Origin: Candidatus Nomurabacteria bacterium
GTDB taxonomy: Bacteria; Patescibacteriota; Minisyncoccia; Phycocordibacterales; UBA9973
Length of the DNA stretch: 64,000 bases
Direction: 5' to 3'
Assembly: GCA_943359485.1 (NCBI GenBank)
Contig: CALRHR010000001.1
Span: 51,141 to 115,140 of the forward strand
Part shown: piece by piece, positions 3,122-62,133 of the stretch
Layout of the letters: the number at the start of each line of letters is the position of its first letter
How positions within the stretch are numbered: position 1 is the stretch's first letter
Notes under the pieces: generated by a model
What the model was told of the DNA's origin: nothing
Databases searched by the model: none
What the model saw: the letters and a program-made list of their open reading frames with translations, nothing else
Made by a program: the position numbers and the translations under genes

Positions 3122-3697
3122 ATGAGGGGACAAATACTTTTAAAGGCTCTGGAAGTGCTCACAGATTGCGCATTGACTCAAGTTGATTTTATTGAGGCAG
3201 TGCTTGCGAGTGGTTACGGGGCGGGTTTAGGGAAACTTGATTATGAATTTAGAAAAAGGCGAAGTGTAAGAGAGCGGGCAAATCTCAGAGAAGAGTATAA
3301 AACAGAACGCCGAAGGAGATTACAAAATTTTTTATACCAGATGAAACATGACGGATTGCTGGATGCTACTAAAGATAATAAATTGACCGTTTCTATAAAA
3401 GGAAAACAAAAAATAAAGGAACTAAAAAATAAATTACCTGGGCGTTACTACCTTAAAACAAAGACAACACAGATCACCATCATTAGTTTTGATATACCAG
3501 AGAAATTAAGGAGAAAGCGAAACTGGTTACGGGAAGTGATTAGGAATCTTGGGTTTAAAATGATACATCAGAGTGTTTGGATGGGGAAAAACAAAATCCC
3601 TGCAGAATTCATAGAGGATCTTGAGAACTTAAGAATTTTGGAATATGTTGAGATTCTGGAAGCTACTAAGAGCGGAAGTTTGAAGAAATTGGTATAA
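3122..3697 (+). CDS. PaaX-like regulator with Cas2-fold C-terminal domain (paralogue 1)
   Basis: ITIISFDIPEKLRRKRNWLREVIRNLGFKMIHQSVWMG matches the PaaX_C/Cas2-like beta-alpha motif. A paralogue lies at 32676-33221. Confidence 0.6.
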   Translation: MRGQILLKALEVLTDCALTQVDFIEAVLASGYGAGLGKLDYEFRKRRSVRERANLREEYKTERRRRLQNFLYQMKHDGLLDATKDNKLTVSIKGKQKIKELKNKLPGRYYLKTKTTQITIISFDIPEKLRRKRNWLREVIRNLGFKMIHQSVWMGKNKIPAEFIEDLENLRILEYVEILEATKSGSLKKLV

Positions 3698-22103: not shown

Positions 22104-22267
22104 GTAAAGTATAAATAATTTTTAGAGCAAAGATTGAACTCTAACGAATCCAACAAAAATAATACGAATCGTAACATCCAAGGGTCGACGATGCAAAGCA
22201 TCGGAGATACTGAGGAGCGAAGCGACGAATGTACTGTTTTTTGTTTTGTTTCGTTCTAATTAACTTT

Positions 22268-23910
<1,643 letters not shown>

Positions 23911-24138
23911 TTGAAAACTATCCCGGTCCTCTTCGGAGGGCTGAGTGTCAGACCCGTTCTGACCGGATTTATTGAGTCGGTATTGTGTCGCTCAATTGAC
24001 GACACAATAGTTTTTGCTCAAACTTAAAATGAGCTAGACTATATGGAAAGACATATAAAATAAAAAAGTTTCAGCCTTCGGGCTGATCCGCCTCTGGCGG
24101 AAAAAAGGAACGAAACAAAACAAAGGACAGTAACAAAA

Positions 24139-32675: not shown

Positions 32676-33221
32676 ATGCGTAATAGGATTGATTATAAAA
32701 GAATTATTTTAACGACGGTTGCAACTGCAGGAATTTTAGCGGTGGCGGTTCTTGCACCGAATGTCCTGCAAGTTCTAAAGCCTTTTTTAAAGCAAAAGAA
32801 AAGATATAACCTTAAATACTATTTAAATCAAAAAGCAAAGAAACTTATAAAAAATGGTTTTCTTAAAATAGGCACTGAAGACGGGAAACAATTTTTATCG
32901 CTCACAGAAAAAGGAGAGTCTAAATTGAAATTTTATAAGGTTATAGAAAAAAAGAAAAATATTAAATGGGATGGCAAATGGAGGGTAGTTATTTTTGATG
33001 TATGGGAAAAAGCCAGATCAAAAAGAGATCTTTTACGCATGGAAATTAAAAATTTTGGATTTATCCAGCTCCAGCAAAGTGTATGGATTTATCCTTATCC
33101 GTGCGCAGAATTCATTGAGCTTTTAAAGGCAGATTTATCTTTTGGTAAAAATATTAGATATATGGTTGTGGAAAAATTAGATCACGATGAGAATTTGAAG
33201 AAAAAGTTTGGTTTTGGGTAA
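32676..33221 (+). CDS. PaaX-like regulator with Cas2-fold C-terminal domain (paralogue 2, N-terminal TM helix)
   Basis: WDGKWRVVIFDVWEKARSKRDLLRMEIKNFGFIQLQQSVWIYPYP. Confidence 0.6.
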   Translation: MRNRIDYKRIILTTVATAGILAVAVLAPNVLQVLKPFLKQKKRYNLKYYLNQKAKKLIKNGFLKIGTEDGKQFLSLTEKGESKLKFYKVIEKKKNIKWDGKWRVVIFDVWEKARSKRDLLRMEIKNFGFIQLQQSVWIYPYPCAEFIELLKADLSFGKNIRYMVVEKLDHDENLKKKFGFG

Positions 33222-47013: not shown

Positions 47014-47034
47014 TGTCAAAGGCGGGCTTTGACA
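47014..47034. repeat. REP hairpin TGTCAAAGGCGGGCTTTGACA
   Basis: A perfect palindrome that overlaps both the gyrA stop and the last codons of the RAYT ORF. Confidence 0.8.
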
Positions 47035-47642
47035 TCAAAATTCAGTGTTTGCTCTATAAAGTTTTTAGTGTCTCCAAAAGTTTCCAGTAAGAATTCTTTA
47101 CTAACTATTGGCAAGTTTCGGTCTGATGCATAATCATTATAACTACCCCACTGATATTCTTTTGGATGTTTCACTAATCCATCTTTTACTGGATTCATGT
47201 GAATATAAGATGATGTCCACATCAGCTGAGGATCGCCTTTAATAAGTACTGCCTTAAATTTGTCTTGAAAAACATGCCCAACTTTTTTATATTTTTTATT
47301 AATGTATCTAGAATAACTAGTACAAAGTTTTAACATTAATTTTGAAATTGGCATGTCTACAATTTGTTCAATTAGAAAATGGAAGTGGTTTGGCATCAGA
47401 CAAAAAGCATACAAATTAAAAGCCCCTTTTTCCATTTTAGTTATCCTGATTCTAGAGTAGGGTAGGGCAGTTAATTTTTCTTTGTTTAATTCTTCTTCAG
47501 TAAATCCCAAAGACAGTCCCAGTCTAAAGAGGAAAGCTCTATAATCCTGCTCATCGAAAAATATCTTCTCCTTATTATTGCCACGATTATAGATGTGATA
47601 AATACCACCAGGAGCAAATTCTTTAAAGTCTCTATTATTCAT
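47016..47642 (-). mobile_element. REP-associated tyrosine transposase (RAYT, IS200/Y1 transposase family)
   Basis: IYHIYNRGNNKEKIF...FCLMPNHFHFLIE...YIHMNPVKDGLV matches the HUH plus Tyr pattern. REP hairpins flank it. Confidence 0.8.
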
Positions 47643-48325: not shown

Positions 48326-49624
48326 ATGAAAAGCAATTTTCAAATTATAGTTTTAGTTGTCTTTATTGTATTTGCCATTTTCGGCGTTTTGGTTTTTTCT
48401 GGCACTATACCGATAGGTGACAATGGTGAGCCGGGGTCTTTGGGCACAGTTACTTTATGGGGGACAGTCAAAAGCGAGGCGATGATTCCTATTCTCGAAG
48501 AATTCAATCTTGCCAACCCGACTTTTATCTTAAAGTATGTTCAGAAATCTACAGATTCGTTCGACCAAGACCTACTTGAAGCTTTAGCTGAAGGTAGGGG
48601 TCCCGACATTGTTTTCATGACAGATGAATTAGCATTTCACTATAATAATAAAATTTTTACCATTCCATTTGCCAGTTATCCGCTCGCTTCATTCAAAAAT
48701 AATTTCGCTAGTGCTGGAGAAGTTTTTCTGACTTCAAAGGGTATTATGGCTTTTCCTATTTCTATTGATCCGCTTGTGTTGTATTACAATCGTAGTATTT
48801 TAGATGCAAATGGTGTGGTGTATCCCCCAGTCTATTGGGACGAAGTCTCTCTACTTATTCCCACTTTAACCAAAAAAGACGATAGCAACAGAATATCAAA
48901 AAGCACCATAGCGTTGGGGCATTTTTCAAATATAGCTCATGCCAAGGACATTATTTCCACTTTATTTATGCAGGCGGGTAGCTCCATTGTAGCCGAGAAA
49001 AGTGGCATTTTTAGCTCTAGCTTGGATGTACCAGGTAGGCAAGATAACCCTAGTGCAAGTTTGAAATTTTACACTGACTTTGCCGACCCAAACAGCGAGT
49101 CGTATTCCTGGAATAAATCTTTTTCAAACTCCAGAGACAGCTTTTCCAAAGGGGACTTGGCATTTTATATTGGTTACGCGAGCGAGCTTTCATCGCTCAT
49201 AAATAAAAATCCGAATCAAAATTTCGGAGTGGCACCACTTCCACAAAAACGAAATGCTAATTTTAAATTAACCGGAGCTCACATTACTGGTGTTTCTCTT
49301 TTGTCATCTTCCAAGAACTTTTCTACCGCCCTTACTGCGGCGAGTCTCATAGCTACGAGCAACTTCGCTTCCAAATTTGCCACGATTTTTGGGGTAGCCC
49401 CAGCCCGCCGGGATCTGCTTGCCGTCAAAAAGGCGGATGATAGCTTTATGCCGACGGTGTACAATTCCGCGCTCTTCGGAAAGAGCTGGCTCGATCCTTC
49501 CCCCAAAGATACAGATGTTATCTTCCGCCTTATGGTCGATGGAGTTCTTTCCAACAGTATAACTCCGGACAATGCCGTATCCGATGCAGATAGCAGACTT
49601 AACATTTTATTGCTTCAGCCATAG
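48326..49624 (+). CDS. extracellular solute-binding protein (ABC-type, family 1-like), membrane-anchored
   Basis: It has an N-terminal TM helix, then TLWGTVKSE...FDQDLLEALAEGRGPDIVFM typical of sugar-type SBPs. Confidence 0.6.
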   Translation: MKSNFQIIVLVVFIVFAIFGVLVFSGTIPIGDNGEPGSLGTVTLWGTVKSEAMIPILEEFNLANPTFILKYVQKSTDSFDQDLLEALAEGRGPDIVFMTDELAFHYNNKIFTIPFASYPLASFKNNFASAGEVFLTSKGIMAFPISIDPLVLYYNRSILDANGVVYPPVYWDEVSLLIPTLTKKDDSNRISKSTIALGHFSNIAHAKDIISTLFMQAGSSIVAEKSGIFSSSLDVPGRQDNPSASLKFYTDFADPNSESYSWNKSFSNSRDSFSKGDLAFYIGYASELSSLINKNPNQNFGVAPLPQKRNANFKLTGAHITGVSLLSSSKNFSTALTAASLIATSNFASKFATIFGVAPARRDLLAVKKADDSFMPTVYNSALFGKSWLDPSPKDTDVIFRLMVDGVLSNSITPDNAVSDADSRLNILLLQP

Positions 49625-49654: not shown

Positions 49655-50050
49655 ATGAAAAATATAAAAAAAATTCTCATAAATATCACGGCATTCCTGA
49701 TTGTATTTATGTTGCTTGTTACACCAGTATTGTCTTTTGCGTATAATATCAGGGATCCGATAGTGCCACCTTGTCCGGCGACTGGGTGTGGGTGGAATGA
49801 ATTTTTAATGCTTATAAACAATGTAATTTATTTTATTCTGTATGGTTTGGCTATGCCTATTGCTGCCATTATGTTTGCGTATGCCGGAGTTCTTCTCGTC
49901 CAAGCGCAAGGTGGGGAAGCCAAAACTAAAGCCAAAGAAATTTTCCTGAACGCTGTGTACGGCCTGGCCATAGCCGCCGCTGCCTGGCTGATAGTCAAAA
50001 CCTTACTCGCTGTGTTGGGTTACAAAGATGCCGCTTGGATTGGATTTTAG
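49655..50050 (+). CDS. T4SS-pilin-like (TrbC/VirB2-like) small membrane protein 1
   Basis: It has a signal peptide plus two TM helices. These flank the loop LLVQAQGGEAKTKAKEIFLNAVYGLAIAAAAW. Confidence 0.6.
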   Translation: MKNIKKILINITAFLIVFMLLVTPVLSFAYNIRDPIVPPCPATGCGWNEFLMLINNVIYFILYGLAMPIAAIMFAYAGVLLVQAQGGEAKTKAKEIFLNAVYGLAIAAAAWLIVKTLLAVLGYKDAAWIGF

Positions 50051-50074
50051 TGTGTGTATGTTATAATAAAAGCA

Positions 50075-50482
50075 ATGAAATTTATTAAGAAAAATTTTTA
50101 TATCATAGTACTGCTGACTTTTTTGGTTGTTATGCCTATCCTTTCTTTTGCGCAAGCTACGCCTGGCGGGAACCCTATAAGTACACCTGGTGGAAATGCC
50201 GGATGTGACCCCTCGAAGAAAATCTGCAATCCGATAAAAACCGACACCTTAAATGGCTTTATCAGGGCTATCCTTGAAGGCGTCTTCAAGATCGGCTTGC
50301 CTATTTTAGCGTTGGCATTTGTTTTTGTTGGTTTTCTGTTTGTGCAGGCCAGGGGTAATTCGGAAGAATTGACCAAGGCCAAAGATGCTCTGTTGTATAC
50401 TTTAATCGGTGCAGCGGTGATCCTCGGGTCGTGGGCTATCGCACAGCTTATCACTGAAACAGTGACCGCATTAAAACCGTAA
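50075..50482 (+). CDS. T4SS-pilin-like small membrane protein 2
   Basis: It has a signal peptide ending SFAQA and the loop FVQARGNSEELTKAKDALLYTLIGAAVILG. TATAAT lies 7 nt before the ATG at 50075. Confidence 0.6.
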   Translation: MKFIKKNFYIIVLLTFLVVMPILSFAQATPGGNPISTPGGNAGCDPSKKICNPIKTDTLNGFIRAILEGVFKIGLPILALAFVFVGFLFVQARGNSEELTKAKDALLYTLIGAAVILGSWAIAQLITETVTALKP

Positions 50483-50517
50483 GGTATGGTTGATTATTAA
50501 TAAAAATAAAAATAAAT

Positions 50518-50820
50518 ATGATGTGTAATCAAGAAGGTTTAATTGAAATGGTGTGTAGGTTGGGTGATCTTTTCAGTATTGTTGTTCCGGTATTAGTGGG
50601 CTTGGGAGTTGTTTACTTTGTCTGGGGTGTCGTTCAATATGTTATTGCTGATGATGTAGAGGCAAAGTCGAAGGGCAAAGACAGGATAATCTTTGGCATT
50701 ATCGGTTTGGCTGTGATTGTTAGTTTGTGGGGGTTAGTGTTCATTCTTACGGATACTTTTTTTGGTGTAGATGCAGGCATGGAAGGTGCCCCTGATTTTC
50801 AAGGTCTACTTCCTGAATAA
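50518..50820 (+). CDS. T4SS-pilin-like paralogue 3 (no obvious signal peptide)
   Basis: YFVWGVVQYVIADDVEAKSKGKDRIIFGIIGLAVIVSLWGLV. Confidence 0.5.
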   Translation: MMCNQEGLIEMVCRLGDLFSIVVPVLVGLGVVYFVWGVVQYVIADDVEAKSKGKDRIIFGIIGLAVIVSLWGLVFILTDTFFGVDAGMEGAPDFQGLLPE

Positions 50821-50825
50821 AAAAT

Positions 50826-51563
50826 ATGAAAAAATACGCACAAAAAATAGTAAAATTTATTCCAATACTTTTTATTTTAACCTTTGTTCCATTTTTAGTT
50901 TTTGCCCAACCCATACCCCCTTCTGCGCCTTCCGGTTTGGCTGCTGTAATAAATAAAATCAGTGCTTTGCTTAGCTCACTTCTCCCCGTACTTATTTCCC
51001 TAGGAGTACTCTATTTTATTTGGGGAGTTATTATTTATTTTATTGCTGACGATGCAGAGGCAAAGTCGAAGGGCAAAGACAGGATAATCTACGGCATTAT
51101 CGGCCTTGCTGTCATTGTCAGTGTTTGGGGACTGGTTGCCATCTTAAATCAAACTCTTGGTTTGAGTGGGAACTCTGGTTTATCTGGCGTGAGTGCTCCT
51201 TCTAGTATTTCAAATTTGGCACCCTCTTCCAATGTATTACCTTCATGTTCATATATGATAAGTAATAAACCAAAGCTGGCGAATTATCTGGAGTACTTTA
51301 CTTGTATAATTGCTCAATCAGTCATCCCACTTATCTTTGCCATAGCTGTCGTGACCTTTATCTGGGGTGCGGTAAAGTTCTTTATCATCAATGCGGAAGA
51401 GGAAGCCAAAAGAGATCAGGGCAAGCAGTTCATGCTCTGGGGTATTATTGCCCTCGCGGTGATGATCAGTGTTTGGGGTTTGGTCAAAATTCTGGGAGAG
51501 ACCGTGAATATAGATACAAACTATCTGCCTTCAGTTCAGCCGTACAGTTCATCCCGGCCGTAG
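50826..51563 (+). CDS. T4SS-pilin-like paralogue 4, tandem double-domain
   Basis: It has a signal peptide and two copies of the two-helix module (…ADDAEAKSKGKDRIIYGIIGLAV… and …NAEEEAKRDQGKQFMLWGIIALAV…). Confidence 0.55.
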   Translation: MKKYAQKIVKFIPILFILTFVPFLVFAQPIPPSAPSGLAAVINKISALLSSLLPVLISLGVLYFIWGVIIYFIADDAEAKSKGKDRIIYGIIGLAVIVSVWGLVAILNQTLGLSGNSGLSGVSAPSSISNLAPSSNVLPSCSYMISNKPKLANYLEYFTCIIAQSVIPLIFAIAVVTFIWGAVKFFIINAEEEAKRDQGKQFMLWGIIALAVMISVWGLVKILGETVNIDTNYLPSVQPYSSSRP

Positions 51564-51628
51564 CCCTTGCTTTTATTATTAGTATGTTTGTGTTAGAATT
51601 AACAGGTCGTTTATTAATTAAGTCAGGT

Positions 51629-51699
51629 ACTAGGTGTTAGGCGCTAGGCATTAGCATAAAATCAAGCTAAAGCTTAAAGTCTAAATTCCTAAAGCCTAA
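51629..51699. repeat. TAGGC-heptad palindromic element
   Basis: ACTAGGTGTTAGGCGCTAGGCATTAGC-ATAAAATCAA-GCTAAAGCTTAAAGTCTAAATTCCTAAAGCCTAA. Confidence 0.55.
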
Positions 51700-51703
51700 A
51701 AAA

Positions 51704-52090
51704 ATGAAAAATAAATTAATGGTTTTGTCGGGTTTTGTTATGGGTTTGGTTCCGGTCGTGGCGTTAGCGCAGAATACTGGTGGTACTCCTACTGTGTGTA
51801 CTGCGGGTCCTGTGACAACCTTTCAGGGTGCCTTGTGTAAAATTGGGGAGATTATGAATGCAATCATTCCGATTTTGATAACACTGGGTGTACTGTACTT
51901 TGTCTGGGGAGTTATTTCGTATGTTATTGCTGATGATGAAGAGGCAAAGTCAAAGGGACGAGACAGGATAATCTACGGTATTATCGGCTTGGCTGTTATC
52001 ATTTCTGTTTGGGGATTGGTGAAGATTTTGTCAAATACTTTTGGGCTTACAAATGTACAGCAAATTACTTTTCCGACTGTTTCTTACTAA
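51704..52090 (+). CDS. T4SS-pilin-like paralogue 5
   Basis: It has a signal peptide ending VALAQN and YFVWGVISYVIADDEEAKSKGRDRIIYGIIGLAVIISVWGLV. Confidence 0.55.
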   Translation: MKNKLMVLSGFVMGLVPVVALAQNTGGTPTVCTAGPVTTFQGALCKIGEIMNAIIPILITLGVLYFVWGVISYVIADDEEAKSKGRDRIIYGIIGLAVIISVWGLVKILSNTFGLTNVQQITFPTVSY

Positions 52091-52140
52091 TCTATAAAGT
52101 GTCGCACCAAGAATCGTGCGACATGATTTCGTAAAATCAC

Positions 52141-52488
52141 ATGAATTTATTTCTCGGTCTTTTCTCTGCCAGGGTGGCTTATGCGAGCGTTGATACCTTT
52201 ATGAATAGCGTAGGCGAGCTTATCATAAATCCGCTCATCAATTTTCTTTTTGCTCTAGCGGTGGTGTATTTTCTGTATGGCGTGTTTGAATTTCTGTCCA
52301 ATCAGGAAAATGAAGACAAGAGAACAGCCGGCAAGAGCCACATGCTTTGGGGAATTGTCGGCATCACCATCATGATGGGTGTGTGGATCATCTTTGGTCT
52401 TATTCTGGACACTTTTAACTTAAGAGGTGACATAGATGTCAGTTCAGGAGGGGTTATAAATGTGAAGTTGCCACCATACAATCCTTAA
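52141..52488 (+). CDS. T4SS-pilin-like paralogue 6 (divergent)
   Basis: VVYFLYGVFEFLSNQENEDKRTAGKSHMLWGIVGITIMMGVW. Confidence 0.5.
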   Translation: MNLFLGLFSARVAYASVDTFMNSVGELIINPLINFLFALAVVYFLYGVFEFLSNQENEDKRTAGKSHMLWGIVGITIMMGVWIIFGLILDTFNLRGDIDVSSGGVINVKLPPYNP

Positions 52489-52624
52489 TAGAGAATTCAT
52501 CTCAAGAGAATAAATTCAAATTAGAGACATAAAAAGGGCGACTTCGCAAAAGCGAAGTCGCCCTTTTAGGTTCTGGAGTCAGTTTACTTTGCACAGCATA
52601 GATCTTTTGTGGTATACTGCAACT

Positions 52625-52855
52625 ATGAAAAATATCATTCAATTTTCAATCGAAAAAGGGCAGGATGGGTATTACATTGCTACAGCAAATGATTTTGCTA
52701 TTATTACCCAAGCGAAAAATTTAGAAGATTTGTTTGTAAATATTAAAGAAGCCACCGAGCTTCACTTTGAAGAAATTTTAGAAGAAGAAACATCTCTGAG
52801 CCGCAATCCTTCAATTTTTATAAACTACGAAATGCCTATCGCGCTCTATGCCTAA
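52625..52855 (+). CDS. hicB: HicB-like antitoxin
   Basis: MKNIIQFSIEKGQDGYYIATANDF...DLFVNIKEATELHFE is UPF0150/HicB-like. TATACT (52613-52618) lies 6 nt before the ATG. Confidence 0.65.
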   Translation: MKNIIQFSIEKGQDGYYIATANDFAIITQAKNLEDLFVNIKEATELHFEEILEEETSLSRNPSIFINYEMPIALYA

Positions 52856-53090
52856 ATTAAAGCGACTTTCTGGCAAAGAAGTCATAACTTTTTGTGAACA
52901 ACACAATTTTAGTATCAGTAGACAGAAAGGAAGCCATATTAATTTGGTACGAATTGTTTCAGAGAAAAAACAAGTGGTGACCGTGCCAAATCATAAAGAA
53001 ATAGACAGAGGAACATTGCATAATATTTTCAAGAAACTGTCTTCATTCATTCCTGAAGAAGATTTAAGAAAATTTTTCTTTACTGACTAG
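52848..53090 (+). CDS. hicA: HicA mRNA-interferase toxin
   Basis: KLKRLSGKEVITFCEQHNFSISRQKGSHINL is the YcfA/HicA signature. It overlaps hicB by 8 nt. Confidence 0.75.
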   Translation: MPKLKRLSGKEVITFCEQHNFSISRQKGSHINLVRIVSEKKQVVTVPNHKEIDRGTLHNIFKKLSSFIPEEDLRKFFFTD

Positions 53091-53098
53091 GTAAAATC

Positions 53099-53140
53099 AA
53101 AAAGGCGGTCGTTCATCGCTGAACGGGTCCGCCTTTTGTT
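53099..53140. terminator. bidirectional terminator at the left edge of the GC-rich island
   Basis: AAAAGGCGG-(CGTTCA-GCGA-TGAACG)-CCGCCTTTT has T-runs on both strands. Confidence 0.65.
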
Positions 53141-53248
53141 TTGCGCGTGGGGCTCGCACGCGCGATGTTTTCATGAGCCCTCCTTTCTCCGAAGTTGATC
53201 TGCTTCGGGCAGAGACCTTCTTTGCGCTGGTCAGGCGCTCCGAGAGAA

Positions 53249-54253
53249 TTACTCCCGGATGTATACACCTGTGGCTGGGGTTGCCCCCTCGCCACAGAAC
53301 TTCCAGATCCCCGCCATCCCGATGGACGGCGGGGGGGTGGTGCCGAAGGTCTCTGTATGAGATCCTCCGTCCGGGTCAAACACCTTCATGGAGCCCCGAT
53401 CGGGACCCCACTGGCTGTTGATCCGTAGGTTCCGTTCGTAACAGCCATCTGTTCCGAACGGGTAGAGGGTGGGTGTCGGCCCTACCTTCGCGGGCGCCGG
53501 GGCTGTCGAGGCCACCGGCGTGGATGTCCGGCTACCTGCCGGTGAGGGGGGTGCGGGAGGTAACAATCCCCCAAAAAATCCACCCACTGTCTCCCGGATC
53601 TCGGTCCCGACCCGTTGGGCTACTTTGTCGCCGACTACAGCCTTTTTTGCTGTGTCGATAGCCACTGGGCCGATGCCGCGCCCCTCGGATGCCGCCTGAT
53701 CTGCTTCCTCCCACTTCGTCGTGGGGGCGGGAATCGCGGGGACCGTCATTGGCGTCGCCGACTTCGGCCGAGCCATCTCGGCCGATCGTGGCATTTCCCT
53801 TGCCACGAAAAGGGAAATCAACACTATTCCGAAGATGGTGAGCGCTGGCTTCACTCGGCCGTGTGCCGTCATTGCGGCGATCACGACCGAACAAAAAAAC
53901 AGCGCTACCCAAATTAAGATATCCGTACTGGCTGTTGGGTATAGCCATGGGCGTGGTCCCGTGGTGAGAAAGTAGCTGAAGGCGAAGTTATTGCTAACTC
54001 CGACAACAGTAGTTCCCACCATCATGACGAATGTAAGCGTAGAGAACCCGACGATGAATTTCTTCATTCCATCGGAAATTCCGCCGCCGTGTGCCGCCGC
54101 GGGTCGCGAGAGGCCGCCCCAGCCTTGGTGCTGGGCCAGCTTGTAAAGGCCGTACAGCACTCCGCCGACGATAGCGACGGTCCAGGGGTTCCAGCCGAAT
54201 GAGCTCGACACCCAATACACTCCCAGGGCCGCGATTGCAAATTTCCAAAACAT
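53249..54253 (-). CDS. GC-rich polytopic membrane protein A1 (unknown function; Pro-rich linker plus small Cys-containing C-terminal domain)
   Basis: A 334-aa ORF with an ATG preceded by AAGGAAG. Third codon positions are G/C-rich. There are about 5 hydrophobic helices, then PAIPAPTT...PPAPPSPAGSRTSTPVASTAPAPAKVGPTP. Confidence 0.65.
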   Translation of the reverse strand: MFWKFAIAALGVYWVSSSFGWNPWTVAIVGGVLYGLYKLAQHQGWGGLSRPAAAHGGGISDGMKKFIVGFSTLTFVMMVGTTVVGVSNNFAFSYFLTTGPRPWLYPTASTDILIWVALFFCSVVIAAMTAHGRVKPALTIFGIVLISLFVAREMPRSAEMARPKSATPMTVPAIPAPTTKWEEADQAASEGRGIGPVAIDTAKKAVVGDKVAQRVGTEIRETVGGFFGGLLPPAPPSPAGSRTSTPVASTAPAPAKVGPTPTLYPFGTDGCYERNLRINSQWGPDRGSMKVFDPDGGSHTETFGTTPPPSIGMAGIWKFCGEGATPATGVYIRE

Positions 54254-54545
54254 TTCATTTCTTCCTTAACTCCGTCCCCTTGACTGGGCAACATGGAGTT
54301 GGAGCAGACTGATCAGAGTACTACAACCGCTTGCGCGTTTGTCTTACTTTGAATAGTCTGCCCGCTAGGAAGCCGGATTTTTTCTCTCCTCTCCTTACCC
54401 CCTCCGCTTTCAGCACCTCCCCCTAAATAGGGGGAGGCCGGGTAGGGGTACAAAGGGGTGAGGGTTCAGCTACATGGCGGGCAAACCATTCATTTTGCTC
54501 GAAATTCTACTTACTTCTTATTTAATTTTCGAAGGTCAGCTTTAC
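54254..54545 (-). promoter_or_regulatory. ~290-nt structured 5' leader of cassette 1
   Basis: A 13-bp long-range stem (54351-54363 with 54479-54491) encloses a GC-rich variable domain. A GCAA-tetraloop hairpin lies at 54328-54337. Confidence 0.55.
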
Positions 54546-54551
54546 CTATGT

Positions 54552-54580
54552 ATTGTATCACACTTATGACAAAAAGTCAA
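54552..54580 (-). promoter_or_regulatory. promoter of cassette 1 (TTGACT-N17-TACAAT on minus strand)
   Basis: The -35 lies at 54575-54580 and the -10 at 54552-54557. The sequence is identical to cassette 2. Confidence 0.7.
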
Positions 54581-54626
54581 GCCCTTTGGGCTGAATTTGT
54601 CCTTATTTTGTAAGGTTAAAATGATA

Positions 54627-54658
54627 AAAGGGCCGCCTCAGTGAAGAGACAGCCCTTT
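54627..54658 (-). terminator. terminator of cassette 2
   Basis: On the minus strand, AAAGGGCTG...CGGCCCTTT is followed by TATCATTTT. Confidence 0.55.
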
Positions 54659-54783
54659 GTTTTGCGCTGGGCCTGTGCGCGATTTGGGCCCTGGGTTGAC
54701 GAGTCCCCGTTGCGTCACTCTGGTTTGTTCCCTCCAGACGGGAGACCTCTATTTTGTAAGCGCTGGTCAGGTGCTTTGTCTTT

Positions 54784-55281
54784 TTAGGGGCAGTACCGGC
54801 TTGCCCCCTCTTCGAGGGGGTTGAACGGCCGTTTCTTCCCGTCCTCCCCGACGATCTCGTCGGGGCAGCCGAATTTCTTGTGTTTGGGGGTCCCTACCCC
54901 CAGAATTTTGTCGACGGCCTGGTCGAGCGCTTGCCCGACAGAGACCGCCGACTTGCCGTCGCCGAGTCCAAGACTCCCGAGGACCTTGTTGATCCCCTCG
55001 AGGGCCGCGTTCCCGGCGGTCTTTCCGATCTCAAGCGCGCGCCGATTGCGCAGCGCGCGGGCCTTGGCTAGAATCGTCGGAGTGCTGTCCTCCGGATGCG
55101 CCTCGAGCCAGGCCAGCGTCTTGCTGGCCCCGTCATAGAGCGCCTTCGCTCCCTCGATTGTTGTAGCGGCTGGAGCCTTCTCCAGAGCCGCCACTTTCTG
55201 CGCCATTTTTTCTTGTCGGCTGGCGCCACAACCGACCGCCGTGAGTGCCACGGCGAGCACGAACGTCAAGAGGAAATTCAT
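54784..55281 (-). CDS. GC-rich putative lipoprotein B2 (helical, unknown function)
   Basis: The signal peptide MNFLLTFVLAVALTAVGC is lipobox-like. GGAGGGGGAGGGAAGAA lies immediately upstream. The start overlaps the upstream stop as ATGA. Confidence 0.65.
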   Translation of the reverse strand: MNFLLTFVLAVALTAVGCGASRQEKMAQKVAALEKAPAATTIEGAKALYDGASKTLAWLEAHPEDSTPTILAKARALRNRRALEIGKTAGNAALEGINKVLGSLGLGDGKSAVSVGQALDQAVDKILGVGTPKHKKFGCPDEIVGEDGKKRPFNPLEEGASRYCP

Positions 55282-56153
55282 TTCTTCCCTCCCCCTCCAA
55301 ACATTCCCTTGACTATCCACTCCAGGGGCTGGGTGACTACCTCACCCAGGGAGTGTTTGGCGGCCAACTCCCCAATGCCGCCAATCTTCCATTTCCTAAT
55401 ACCCCCGAGGACCTCGTCCCAACGGGAGCAGACGATGGCTCCGACGAGCGCTATCATCTGCCACCCGAGAACTCCCCACCCCATAGCCTTCTCCCCGAAG
55501 AGAAACGAGTTAATGGTTGCCCAAAAACCGAATTCCCCCAGGGGATCCTCGAGCGGAGTCGTTGCCACAGCCCAGAACTGGGCTTTGGCGATTTCGATGG
55601 GGTTTAGGGTTGCTGGCGCCGCGGTAGGGTCCACCCACCACAAAAACACCACCCCTAACACCATCCACACCGTCGTGCGAAGTACCCAGTTGTTGTCGCC
55701 GAGCCGGATCAGGACACTCCGCCCGATCTCCGCAGCCCCACGGCCGTGAGTCTCGATTCCCGCGAAGATGGCGAAGACCGCGAGCGTGGTCACGAGGGCA
55801 ACTAGCGTAAAGGCTGGGTAGCCGAACCAAAAACCGAAGACGATCCAGTAGAGTACTATGAACAGCGCCCCCCAGAATCCCACGGTCTTCGGCTTGATCA
55901 CTACCTCGCCTTCGTCGCAAGCGCCATCGCCTACGACTTCGGCCCTAATGATGTGTCGTCCCGGTTTGAGGTCTTTGAGCTCGAAGCTCGCGACCCCGCC
56001 TTCCGTCTTTACGGCGCGCTTGCGCTTGCCGTCGACCGAGAAACGAACCTGGACTTCTTTCTCGCCACCTTTTTTCCCGGCGGTGGCCGGCCGGTCTGAC
56101 ACGACGGCTTCCGCCACCGTGTCTTTCTCTACTAAACTCAAAGTCAAAATCAT
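55278..56153 (-). CDS. GC-rich membrane protein A2 (N-terminal beta-rich soluble domain plus multiple TM helices)
   Basis: The start is chosen at MILTLS, with TAGGAG 7 nt upstream. The hydrophobic core is FWGALFIVLYWIVFGFWFGYPAFTLVALVTTLAVFAIFAGI. Confidence 0.6.
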   Translation of the reverse strand: MILTLSLVEKDTVAEAVVSDRPATAGKKGGEKEVQVRFSVDGKRKRAVKTEGGVASFELKDLKPGRHIIRAEVVGDGACDEGEVVIKPKTVGFWGALFIVLYWIVFGFWFGYPAFTLVALVTTLAVFAIFAGIETHGRGAAEIGRSVLIRLGDNNWVLRTTVWMVLGVVFLWWVDPTAAPATLNPIEIAKAQFWAVATTPLEDPLGEFGFWATINSFLFGEKAMGWGVLGWQMIALVGAIVCSRWDEVLGGIRKWKIGGIGELAAKHSLGEVVTQPLEWIVKGMFGGGGKK

Positions 56154-56462
56154 TATCTTTCTCCTAATCAAATTTTTTCTCGAGCACACGATTCAGAATA
56201 CTACAACCACTTGCGTGTTTGTCGTTTCCTGAATAGTCTGCCCATCAATGAGCCGATGCATTTCCTCTCCCTGCGAAGGGGGAGATTTGAGAGGGGGTCT
56301 CAAGAATTACCACCCCTAGCCCCTCCTTAATCAAGGAGGGGAGGAAACATAAAATACTCAGCTTCTTAACGGGCAAACCATTCATTTCCCCGCCAGTCTG
56401 GCCGGGGTAAATTGCTCGAAATTCTACTTACTTCTTATTTAATTTTCGAGTAACAGCTTTAC
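56154..56462 (-). promoter_or_regulatory. ~310-nt structured 5' leader of cassette 2
   Basis: It has the same architecture as 54254-54545. The stem joins 56231-56243 with 56371-56383, and the GCAA hairpin lies at 56208-56217. There is an extra 24-nt hairpin insert. Confidence 0.55.
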
Positions 56463-56468
56463 CTATGT

Positions 56469-56497
56469 ATTGTATCACACTTATGACAAAAAGTCAA
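56469..56497 (-). promoter_or_regulatory. promoter of cassette 2 (TTGACT-N17-TACAAT on minus strand)
   Basis: The -35 lies at 56492-56497 and the -10 at 56469-56474. Confidence 0.7.
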
Positions 56498-56626
56498 GCC
56501 TAAATGCTCCAAAACAGCCTTATTTTACAGGCTATTTTGGGGCATTATTGACATTAGTCTTGTATTGTGTTTTTAAAAAAGTCTATAGTTCTTGTCTTAA
56601 TCTAATTCAAATGATATTATATAAAT

Positions 56627-56857
56627 ATGAACACCGTAACCTTACCCAAAAATCAATACATGCAAATTTTAAGCACTCAAGACAAATTTCAAGTGGATTT
56701 GTCTCGCTTGGAGAGAATGGTTTCTTATATGGTTCAAGATGAAGTTAGTCCGGTGTATATGACCAGACTTTCTAAGATAGAGAAAGGTCTTTCCGCTGGC
56801 AAAGGTGTTAAGTTTAAAAATAAAAGTGAACTCAAAAAATTCTTTCGTTCTTTATAG
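56627..56857 (+). CDS. putative antitoxin (partner of the RelE/ParE-like toxin)
   Basis: A 76-aa ORF lying 2 nt upstream of the toxin gene. TATTAT (56615-56620) lies 6 nt before the ATG. Confidence 0.5.
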   Translation: MNTVTLPKNQYMQILSTQDKFQVDLSRLERMVSYMVQDEVSPVYMTRLSKIEKGLSAGKGVKFKNKSELKKFFRSL

Positions 56858-56859
56858 TT

Positions 56860-57144
56860 ATGAATAATTTAGAGAAGATGAATTTTATTTTTTCTCTGGA
56901 ATTTAAAAAAATTCTAGAGAAAATGGCAAAGAAAGATAAATTAGGATTAAAAAAAATAGAAGACCAAGTATATAAAATAATCTCTAATCCACTCATAGGT
57001 AAACCTCTTCGTAATGTTATGAAAAGTTATCGACGAGTTCATATAGGGCATTTTGTTTTGATTTATAAAATAGAGAACGGAGAGATAACATTTGCAGATT
57101 ATGACCATCATGATCGCATTTATAAAAAATATTCTCTAACCTAA
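56860..57144 (+). CDS. RelE/ParE-family toxin
   Basis: YRRVHIGHFVLIYKIENGEITFADYDHHDRIY. Confidence 0.65.
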   Translation: MNNLEKMNFIFSLEFKKILEKMAKKDKLGLKKIEDQVYKIISNPLIGKPLRNVMKSYRRVHIGHFVLIYKIENGEITFADYDHHDRIYKKYSLT

Positions 57145-61323: not shown

Positions 61324-61341
61324 TGTTTTTCTGTTTCTTTG

Positions 61342-61413
61342 AGGCGTGGGTGGGAATCGAACCCACGCATGTCGGTTTTGCAGACCGAAGCGTTACCATT
61401 TCGCCACCACGCC
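61342..61413 (-). tRNA. tRNA-Cys (anticodon GCA)
   Basis: The reverse complement reads GGCGTGGTGGCGAAATGGTAACGC-T-TCGGT-CTGCAAA-ACCGA...GTGGGTTCGATTCCCACCCACGCCT. Confidence 0.88.
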
Positions 61414-62133
61414 TTTTAAATGAAAATCGATTATTTTTCTAATTTTCCTATCAACAACCTTTGGTCGTAATTCAAAGTAGTTATTGAATATTTTAAATTT
61501 TCGCATAAAAAATGAATTAATGCTAGTGCCTTTGTATATTAGTTTGAATATTTGTAGAGAATCTTTTGTGTTGTATATTGCTTGGAAAGATCTCTTACTT
61601 GAATAAATTTTACCTTCTTTAATCCCAATTTTTCTAAAAACATGATTCATTTTTTCAAGAAATATTTTACTACCACTAGTAAATATCACACGAACCCTTT
61701 TTATTATTAATTTTTGGGTTTTACCTTTGGTTTGTGCAAAGTGAACACATCCATCTCCATCAAAATATCCCCTCATAAAATGACCTAAGTATTTTTGTGG
61801 AACTTTTGGGAACTTTATAGTTAGAGATTTGTTTGGATATAGACCTAATCTAAAAAGGTCATTGTATATTTTATGACTACCTATTCTTAACGCAAAGCAA
61901 ACTTTTCCTCTGATAAAATTCGACCTTTTCTGGTTTGTTTTGTGTTCTGAACCCAACCATGTTTTTATTCTTTCTATGGAATCTTTATCTGTGCTAGCTA
62001 TTTGGATATATTTACCACGCATATAAGGTGAATCATCCAAACTTCCATCAGCATAAATATATCCCAAAACATAGGCCATATTCGGGGACCATTTTTCGAA
62101 GAATTTTTCATTAACTTTATATTTTATTCCCAC
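61393..62133 (-). CDS. LAGLIDADG-family homing endonuclease-like protein (double motif)
   Basis: Two motifs are present: LGYIYADGS and MRGYFDGDGC. The start is GTG with TATAAT 6 nt upstream. The last 21 nt overlap tRNA-Cys. Confidence 0.75.
   Translation of the reverse strand: MGIKYKVNEKFFEKWSPNMAYVLGYIYADGSLDDSPYMRGKYIQIASTDKDSIERIKTWLGSEHKTNQKRSNFIRGKVCFALRIGSHKIYNDLFRLGLYPNKSLTIKFPKVPQKYLGHFMRGYFDGDGCVHFAQTKGKTQKLIIKRVRVIFTSGSKIFLEKMNHVFRKIGIKEGKIYSSKRSFQAIYNTKDSLQIFKLIYKGTSINSFFMRKFKIFNNYFELRPKVVDRKIRKIIDFHLKGVVAKW

Follow-up and report, generated by a model that had tools for sequence, protein, structure and literature searches.

Do tandem pilin paralogues serve as interchangeable copies that vary the cell surface, or as distinct parts of one defined structure? 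This question is raised by a 64-kb stretch of the chromosome of a Candidatus Nomurabacteria bacterium (contig CALRHR010000001.1, positions 51,141 to 115,140), which is referred to at its full length of 64,000 nucleotides as the window. Six open reading frames (ORFs) lie head to tail on its + strand at 49655-52488, with intergenic gaps of 3 to 140 nt, and encode small proteins with seven two-helix modules in total. An earlier note, made from the letters of the window, had described them as pilin-like paralogues of a type IV secretion system (T4SS), with a core that evolves in concert, surface parts that diversify, and one internal duplication. Comparison with relatives leads to a different picture. 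The array is a fixed set of five old module types at a fixed place in at least 80 related species, and not a rapidly changing array.

Patescibacteria are regarded as living attached to host cells, and the T4SS is essential in the one species tested. The frozen, multi-type composition of the array favors a defined heteromeric structure over antigenic variation. The locus also offers concrete subunit combinations for asking whether a monoderm T4SS pilus exists.

Family and fold of the six proteins

The assignment to a T4SS pilin family in the earlier note was borne out by profile searches. All six proteins pass the gathering cut-off of the Pfam family PF18895 (T4SS_pilin; 26.6 bits) with scores of 32.2 to 63.2 bits, and their orthologues carry the same family in precomputed annotation. 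A hidden Markov model (HMM) built from the seven modules matches only these six genes within the window. In NCBIfam, the best match for five of the six genes is NF045849, the Mbov_0395 family of pilin-like conjugal transfer proteins (cut-off 40 bits). Gene 4 scores 42.4 bits and passes only because of its two modules, genes 2, 3, 5, and 6 score 24.5 to 29.8 bits, and gene 1 has no match. Holins and bacteriocin immunity proteins, which the note had named as the alternatives, were not matched in Pfam or NCBIfam at E <= 1, nor were phage families.

In AlphaFold2 models, the modules are hairpins in which two helices, each about 35 residues long, are connected by a turn of 3 to 4 residues, and the predicted local distance difference test (pLDDT) score of the helices is 70 to 94 across models. 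In gene 4, modeled with 81 homologues, the helices span residues 38-73/77-110 and 151-188/193-226. Gene 2, modeled with 70 homologues, forms a hairpin at 59-91/96-133, with an overall pLDDT of 75 and helices at 85 to 94. The short charged loops have the forms xxGGEAKTKAK and ADDxEAKSKGKDRI, as described in the note.

Five module types were distinguished and named T1, T2, A, T4b, and T6, and the array in the window reads T1, T2, A, A+T4b, A, T6, all genes being on the + strand. Gene 1 (49655-50050; type T1, 131 aa, PF18895 34.9 bits) has a signal peptide ending in VLSFA before a Y, the Cys pair CPATGC, and the loop AQGGEAKTKAKE. T1 orthologues are found in nearly all of the loci surveyed below, and the Cys pair is kept in 58 of 61 of them. 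Gene 2 (50075-50482; type T2, 135 aa from ATG 50075, 40.2 bits) probably starts at that ATG, which the NCBI record calls; the mechanical ORF begins at GTG 50054. Gene 3 (50518-50820; 100 aa, 38.2 bits) is an extra A-type copy, A3, which stands alone in 20 species and in another 5 is part of a fusion with gene 4.

Gene 4 (50826-51563; 245 aa, 63.2 bits over two stretches) encodes a fused two-module protein. A signal peptide is followed by an A-type module (A4a; about nt 50931-51170), a Gly/Ser/Pro-rich linker of 35-40 residues, and a T4b module (about nt 51270-51509); in an 81-sequence alignment, C141 is invariant and C160 nearly invariant (at least 90%). Gene 5 (51704-52090; A-type copy A5, 128 aa, 41.6 bits) has a signal peptide ending in VVALA before a Q, plus a Cys pair. 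Gene 6 (52141-52488; type T6, 115 aa, 32.2 bits) has no Cys and closes the array in nearly all loci.

By inspection of the sequence, genes 1, 2, 4, and 5 carry classical signal peptides ending in SFA, VFA, or ALA, in agreement with the four counted in the note, while gene 3 is without one and the leader of gene 6 is short and atypical. Cys pairs ahead of the first helix are conserved in T1, A3, T4b, and A5, which fits an extracytoplasmic position of the N-terminal segment. They are absent from T6, where 0 of 61 orthologues have a Cys in this segment.

Conservation of the array and of its upstream neighbor

The array was surveyed in one genome per species, which gave 80 loci and 518 modules typed against the seven of the window. 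It is present in 80 of the 80 loci. The commonest layout, T1, T2, A+T4b, A, T6, was found in 42 loci, and the layout of the window, with one extra A gene, in 20. Another 5 loci have an A+A+T4b triple fusion and 6 have an extra T4b gene; the remaining ones are broken off by contig ends. Triple-module proteins also occur among database matches. Across about 80 species the array proteins are 50-70% identical, with intact reading frames.

Nearly all of the 80 species have the A+T4b fusion, and fusions join only adjacent A and T4b modules. A search with gene 4 returned 763 homologues at E <= 0.001. Most of the best 120 listed are about 230 aa long and align over nearly the full query, which shows that the two-module form is widespread. 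The earlier note had taken gene 4 for an internal duplication of the module. A recent duplication was rejected because the two halves are 38% identical and of different module types; the gene is instead an old fusion, shared by nearly all relatives.

The position of the array is as constant as its content. A gene for a membrane-anchored solute-binding protein (SBP; 48326-49624, + strand), with Pfam SBP_bac_1/SBP_bac_8 and a weak MalE-like match, ends 30 nt before gene 1. Of 76 loci, 74 have an SBP homologue immediately before the array and on the same strand, separated from it by a median of about 26 nt; in the other 2 the homologue is near-adjacent but fell outside the gap threshold. The genes are ordered gyrA-methyltransferase-SBP in 78 of 78 loci, and on three long contigs of relatives the pilin array that follows these genes is in turn followed by rbfA-infB and clpB. 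Downstream of gene 6, a hairpin followed by TTTT (52532-52567, + strand), formed by a perfect 16-bp inverted repeat with 100% complementarity, is likely the terminator closing the array. The array is probably co-transcribed with the SBP gene. A scan for promoters and terminators gave counts no higher than in shuffles and does not define the operon.

The SBP gene suggests another role for the two-helix proteins. They could remain in the membrane as part of an SBP-linked complex for the uptake or sensing of a host-derived solute, with VirB4 optional. The only evidence for such a complex is the adjacency of the two genes in essentially all loci. It would fit that neither the window nor the flanking regions of relatives showed a gene for an ATP-binding cassette (ABC) permease or ATPase, which leaves the SBP locally orphan, and that T4SS genes were not found nearby; reviews have also speculated that the T4SS of Patescibacteria serves uptake (e.g., PMC12857230). 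However, the adjacency may be frozen gene order, as gyrA and the methyltransferase gene are equally conserved there, and genes for ABC partners may lie at another site of the genome. Moreover, the HMM relationships point to conjugative pilins, and no transporter family is known to use such subunits. We regard an SBP-linked membrane complex as improbable.

Conservation versus gene conversion in the module core

Over an 80-residue core, the A-type copies of the window are 58-62% identical to each other, and the other pairs of types are 22-42% identical. When the nearest relatives of A-type modules were compared over this core, the nearest relative was the module at the same position in another genome for 17 of 25 A3, 62 of 67 A4a, and 65 of 67 A5 modules. 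Core identity between paralogues was 0.62 between genomes versus 0.73 within genomes for the loop, and 0.69 versus 0.76 for the second helix. Because the modules group by position and identity between genomes nearly equals that within genomes, the similarity of the paralogue cores is mostly conservation. The shared core mostly reflects purifying selection on an old family. The concerted evolution of the core with diversifying surfaces that the earlier note proposed did not survive this comparison across 80 species, and wholesale concerted evolution was rejected on the same grounds.

The identical DNA on which that proposal was built is nevertheless real. Exact copies of the 34-nt string reported in the note are present at 50659-50692 and 51057-51090, and 100 shuffles gave 0 matches. 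The full run is 35 nt, at 50658-50692 in gene 3, where it encodes the loop EAKSKGKDRII, and at 51056-51090 in module A of gene 4 (both + strand). A close variant is present in gene 5, as was claimed, but its exact site is 51941-51974, and it differs at 4 of 34 positions. When both amino acid sequences were left unchanged and codons were sampled according to the codon usage of the window, none of 20,000 simulations produced a run of 35 nt (largest runs 32-34; P < 5e-5).

The same phenomenon is seen in other genomes. Exact runs of at least 30 nt occur in 9 of 130 within-genome pairs of A-type modules versus 0 of 3000 between-genome pairs. Furthermore, other genomes have their own, different identical tracts between A-type modules at the same place, of 41 nt in one relative (L002) and 80 nt in another (L052). 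These differences favor conversion over selection on one nucleotide sequence, and selection at the nucleotide level was considered an unlikely cause of the identical tract. At identical residues, codon identity over all species is 0.50 within genomes versus 0.43 between genomes, with a bootstrap interval of 0.47-0.53. Gene conversion is real but short in tract and sporadic, and it is seen only among the A-type copies (genes 3, 4a, and 5) and, elsewhere, among duplicated T4b copies. The conversion suggested in the note thus holds for the tract between genes 3 and 4, but only in this restricted form.

Identical tracts between T4b copies reach 74 nt (L053) and 54 nt (L072), much longer than the tract in the window. 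The longer tracts in L052, L053, and L072 are good cases for dating conversion or recent duplication.

These observations bear on the possibility of a variation system, in which the paralogues would be interchangeable major pilins whose exposed parts diversify and are shuffled by conversion, changing the host range or escaping recognition. Such a system was proposed for arrays of this kind, by analogy with the VirB2 paralogues of Bartonella and Anaplasma (PMC12102498). It would account for tandem paralogues with conserved cores and variable exposed N- and C-terminal segments, for the short identical DNA tracts between paralogues in several genomes, and for the difference in A and T4b copy number between species. 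However, about 80 species keep the same five types in the same order, each grouping with its positional orthologue, which points to distinct, non-redundant roles. Types T1, T2, T4b, and T6, distant both from each other and from the A-type, show no conversion in the window. In addition, the conversion tracts lie in the buried loop and second helix rather than in the exposed segments, the within-genome excess of codon identity is small, and two of the types are permanently fused. A variation system is therefore an unlikely function of this array.

A candidate multi-subunit pilus or conduit

The explanation that we favor, and to which we give slightly better than an even chance, is that the six genes encode a fixed set of VirB2-like subunits, which a T4SS of the monoderm type, encoded at an unlinked site, co-assembles into a conduit or a pilus-like filament. 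It includes, with the same guarded confidence, the proposal that the five types are non-interchangeable. Each subunit would be a small protein inserted through the Sec pathway, with a short N-terminal segment that is placed outside the cell by the signal peptide and often closed by a disulfide bond. After this segment would come two long hydrophobic helices, with the turn of 3 to 4 residues in a charged loop facing the cytoplasm and the C-terminal tail outside.

The subunits would then be extracted from the membrane and built into a single structure, either a pilus-like filament or a conduit that spans the envelope, in which the modules of the A+T4b protein and of the occasional A+A+T4b fusions would be neighboring protomers. 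The assembling machine would be a VirB4 T4SS of the monoderm type (MPF-FATA-like; MPF, mating-pair formation) encoded elsewhere in the genome. The array would be expressed in one transcript with the SBP gene just upstream and ended by the hairpin terminator. Occasional conversion may copy about 20 to 80 nt of loop or second-helix DNA between A-type copies, and the copies would otherwise evolve as separate orthologous lineages. Family membership, the hairpin fold, positional orthology, the fusions, and the conserved frame of SBP gene and hairpin are observed; that VirB4 does the assembling, that the types come together in one structure, and that the SBP has a connection with it are inferred.

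Two published findings favor a T4SS encoded away from the array. VirB4 is present in 4 of 5 relatives carrying this array (PMC12102498, Table S1), and VirB2-like genes are found away from virB4 in many assemblies (PMC12102498).

Several points weigh against a T4SS pilus or conduit. First, VirB4, VirB6, VirB3, and VirD4 were not found in the 64-kb window, and T4SS genes were not found within 10 kb of the array in three relatives. Absence of VirB4, VirB6, and VirD4 from the window had been stated in the earlier note and was confirmed: no such family was matched, and VirB4 can be discounted because every ORF of at least 600 aa is a housekeeping enzyme. With no T4SS core gene in the window or near the arrays of these relatives, it is family membership that links the array to a T4SS. 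Second, no pilus has yet been seen in any Patescibacterium (PMC12857230), and co-assembly of the five types is suggested by their conservation and by the fusions only.

Third, the module loop is net neutral and not clearly positive. Fourth, searches against solved structures did not lead to T4SS pilins. Fold searches returned thousands of structures for helical hairpins without singling out solved T4SS pilins, and no solved T4SS pilin was found when alignment profiles of genes 4 and 2 were compared with PDB sequences; the search gave nothing for gene 4 and, for gene 2, only a spurious transmembrane similarity to a G protein-coupled receptor.

Fifth, in the other family that the note had named for an HMM search, TrbC/VirB2 (PF04956; cut-off 27.9 bits), the window proteins score below the cut-off, with 24.6 bits (E 3e-5) for gene 2 and 12.3 bits for gene 1, and the Pfam scan gave no PF04956 match for genes 3 to 6. 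The suggestion was thus upheld for PF18895 in all six genes but not for PF04956 in the window itself. However, precomputed PF04956 matches are found on most gene 2 orthologues, some of which are named TrbC/VirB2 family by NCBI. Because so many orthologues match, the relationship to PF04956 is real even though the window proteins are sub-threshold, and gene 2 (T2) appears, by these profile matches, to be the module type nearest the canonical TrbC/VirB2.

Genomic setting of the array

The window is a low-GC (about 38%) Patescibacteria chromosome of the Nomurabacteria/Paceibacteria type. Its housekeeping genes include guaA and those for ribonucleotide reductase, threonyl-tRNA synthetase (ThrRS), SMC, pyruvate phosphate dikinase (PPDK), enolase, SecA, Mur ligases, S1, GyrA, and IF-2, together with a 16S rRNA gene and tRNAs. 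Proteins identical to those of the array are found in the NCBI metagenome-assembled genome (MAG) GCA_965045245.1 and on a 180-kb contig, and the homologues of the array are labeled Nomurabacteria, Paceibacterota, or Patescibacteria.

T4SS pilins are usually carried by conjugative elements, and the array could be imagined as a remnant of such a mobile element or of a phage, with the pilins as leftover cargo without a cellular role. An IS200-type transposase gene, toxin-antitoxin pairs, and a GC-rich island lie nearby, as would be expected from such a remnant. Yet the array has native GC content, and it keeps the same housekeeping neighborhood in about 80 species at the protein identity given above and with intact frames. 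Genes 1 and 4 gave no PHROG matches, viral contigs showed no relatives, and a phage or mobile-element origin of the array or of the GC-rich island was rejected on the latter ground. Relaxases are also rare in Patescibacteria (PMC12102498). A remnant of this kind is very improbable.

Some other features of the window were recorded. The IS200-type Y1 transposase gene (47016-47642, - strand) lies between gyrA and the methyltransferase gene, which are adjacent in relatives, and this insertion parts gyrA from the upstream genes of the array. The 16S rRNA gene (22266-23911) spans 1646 nt versus a model of 1533 positions, which suggests an insertion of about 110 nt; such insertions are often reported for rRNA genes of Patescibacteria. 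An ORF for a LAGLIDADG-type homing endonuclease (61393-62133, - strand) overlaps the start of a tRNA-Cys gene (61341-61413, - strand) by about 20 nt. The central Cas2-like domain of PaaX (PF20803) occurs in two proteins, encoded at 3122-3697 and 32676-33221, with no CRISPR context in the window.

The GC-rich cassette downstream of the array

Downstream of the array, and convergent on it, lies a GC-rich cassette (53100-56500, - strand) with ORFs at 53249-54253 (334 aa), 54784-55320 (178 aa), and 55278-56189 (303 aa). Its GC content is 0.54-0.62 versus 0.38 for the genome, and the GC content at third codon positions is 0.67-0.75 versus 0.34-0.40 in neighboring genes. The earlier note had considered that membrane proteins of this island might play the part of the missing T4SS components. 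The cassette proteins have no matches in Pfam, NCBIfam, or PHROG, and a role as stand-ins for VirB6 or VirB4 found no support.

The 334-aa protein has 12 homologues only, none of them annotated. Wherever the context is informative, its gene faces the last pilin gene in convergent orientation, immediately or closely downstream of it. More distant cassette homologues occupy the same place in seven other loci and are GC-rich there as well, even though their proteins may be only 30-35% identical.

The two transcription units of the cassette share a 5' leader of about 300 nt (54302-54583 and 56182-56500; 81-96% identical), which has a near-consensus promoter on the minus strand (TTGACT, 17 nt, TACAAT). 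More than 20 species retain the core of this leader 2 to 3.5 kb downstream of the array, in front of other convergent genes, for instance a Band_7 operon. The cassette is treated here as genomic context of the array; it may be a site-specific mobile cassette or an accessory module.

Toxin-antitoxin pairs flank the island, with HicB-like/HicA at 52589-53090 and an antitoxin with a ParE-like toxin at 56627-57144; the ParE call is taken from the NCBI record of a contig from the same organism (L086). In the NCBI MAG of this organism, the terminator hairpin behind gene 6 is cut by a contig end (about 52558), and a second contig stops within the HicB gene, upstream of HicA and the island (L001 and L086). 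A short-read contig (L087) spans genes 5 and 6, HicBA, and the island. The junction at about 52558 is real, as this contig bridges it, and the assembly break there possibly comes from strain variation.

A more elaborate form of the favored explanation can be drawn from these neighbors. The structure would be a heteropolymeric pilus or conduit of fixed composition, with two of its five types always fused, co-expressed with an orphan SBP that captures host-derived nutrients, and the GC-rich cassette would be its swappable accessory module. We consider this full picture doubtful.

Comparison with known systems

The array is of a kind already known, since Wang et al. (2023) and Quinonero-Coronel et al. 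(2025) described VirB2-like arrays in this phylum. Wang et al. reported an essential series of VirB2-like pilins in the T4SS cluster of Ca. Southlakia epibionticum ML1 (PMC10633639). According to a review, these are six sequence-divergent VirB2-like pilins, and essentiality for epibiotic growth is known in that species only (PMC12857230). Quinonero-Coronel et al. surveyed 3,035 genomes and found 441 arrays of 2 to 11 VirB2-like genes with a mean identity of 25% and a maximum of 54%; such arrays are most abundant in Microgenomatia and Saccharimonadia, not in Paceibacteria (PMC12102498).

The present array resembles these Patescibacteria arrays in its phylum, in its PF18895/PF04956 families, in its tandem, divergent two-helix proteins with signal peptides, and in having no relaxase context, and it has six genes as in Southlakia. 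With at least two tandem PF18895/PF04956 genes in a Patescibacteria genome, it is of the kind catalogued by Quinonero-Coronel et al., whose wider definition does not require proximity to virB4 (PMC12102498). Three differences were noted. First, unlike the Southlakia prototype, it lies outside a T4SS cluster, has gyrA-methyltransferase-SBP on one side and the infB region on the other, and in relatives is not accompanied by virB4 within 10 kb. Second, it holds a permanently fused two-module pilin, unlike the catalogued arrays. Third, three of its modules reach 58-62% identity over the 80-aa core, compared to the catalogue maximum of 54% for whole proteins.

Compared to TrbC/VirB2 proteins (PF04956), such as Agrobacterium VirB2 and RP4 TrbC, the array proteins are likewise small, with a long signal peptide, two hydrophobic helices, and a short charged loop, and gene 2 and its orthologues show weak but specific HMM similarity to this family. 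In contrast to the diderm T4SSs of that family, the host here is monoderm, the genes are unlinked to virB genes, and the family score is sub-threshold. There are several subunit types rather than one major pilin, and N-terminal Cys pairs are present. The Mbov_0395 family of Mycoplasma integrative and conjugative elements likewise consists of small two-helix proteins, which belong to the conjugation system of a wall-less or monoderm cell, but the present genes are chromosomal rather than on such an element, and gene 4 alone passes the cut-off of that family.

The T4SSs of Bartonella and Anaplasma, as described in PMC12102498, also have several tandem virB2-like genes, for which surface variation was proposed. 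Unlike those paralogues, the copies here are old, positionally conserved types and not recent variable duplicates. The array is therefore no new kind of system; what it adds is the evidence for a frozen, multi-type pilin parts list in one large lineage, to which an obligatory fused subunit and a conserved SBP neighbor belong.

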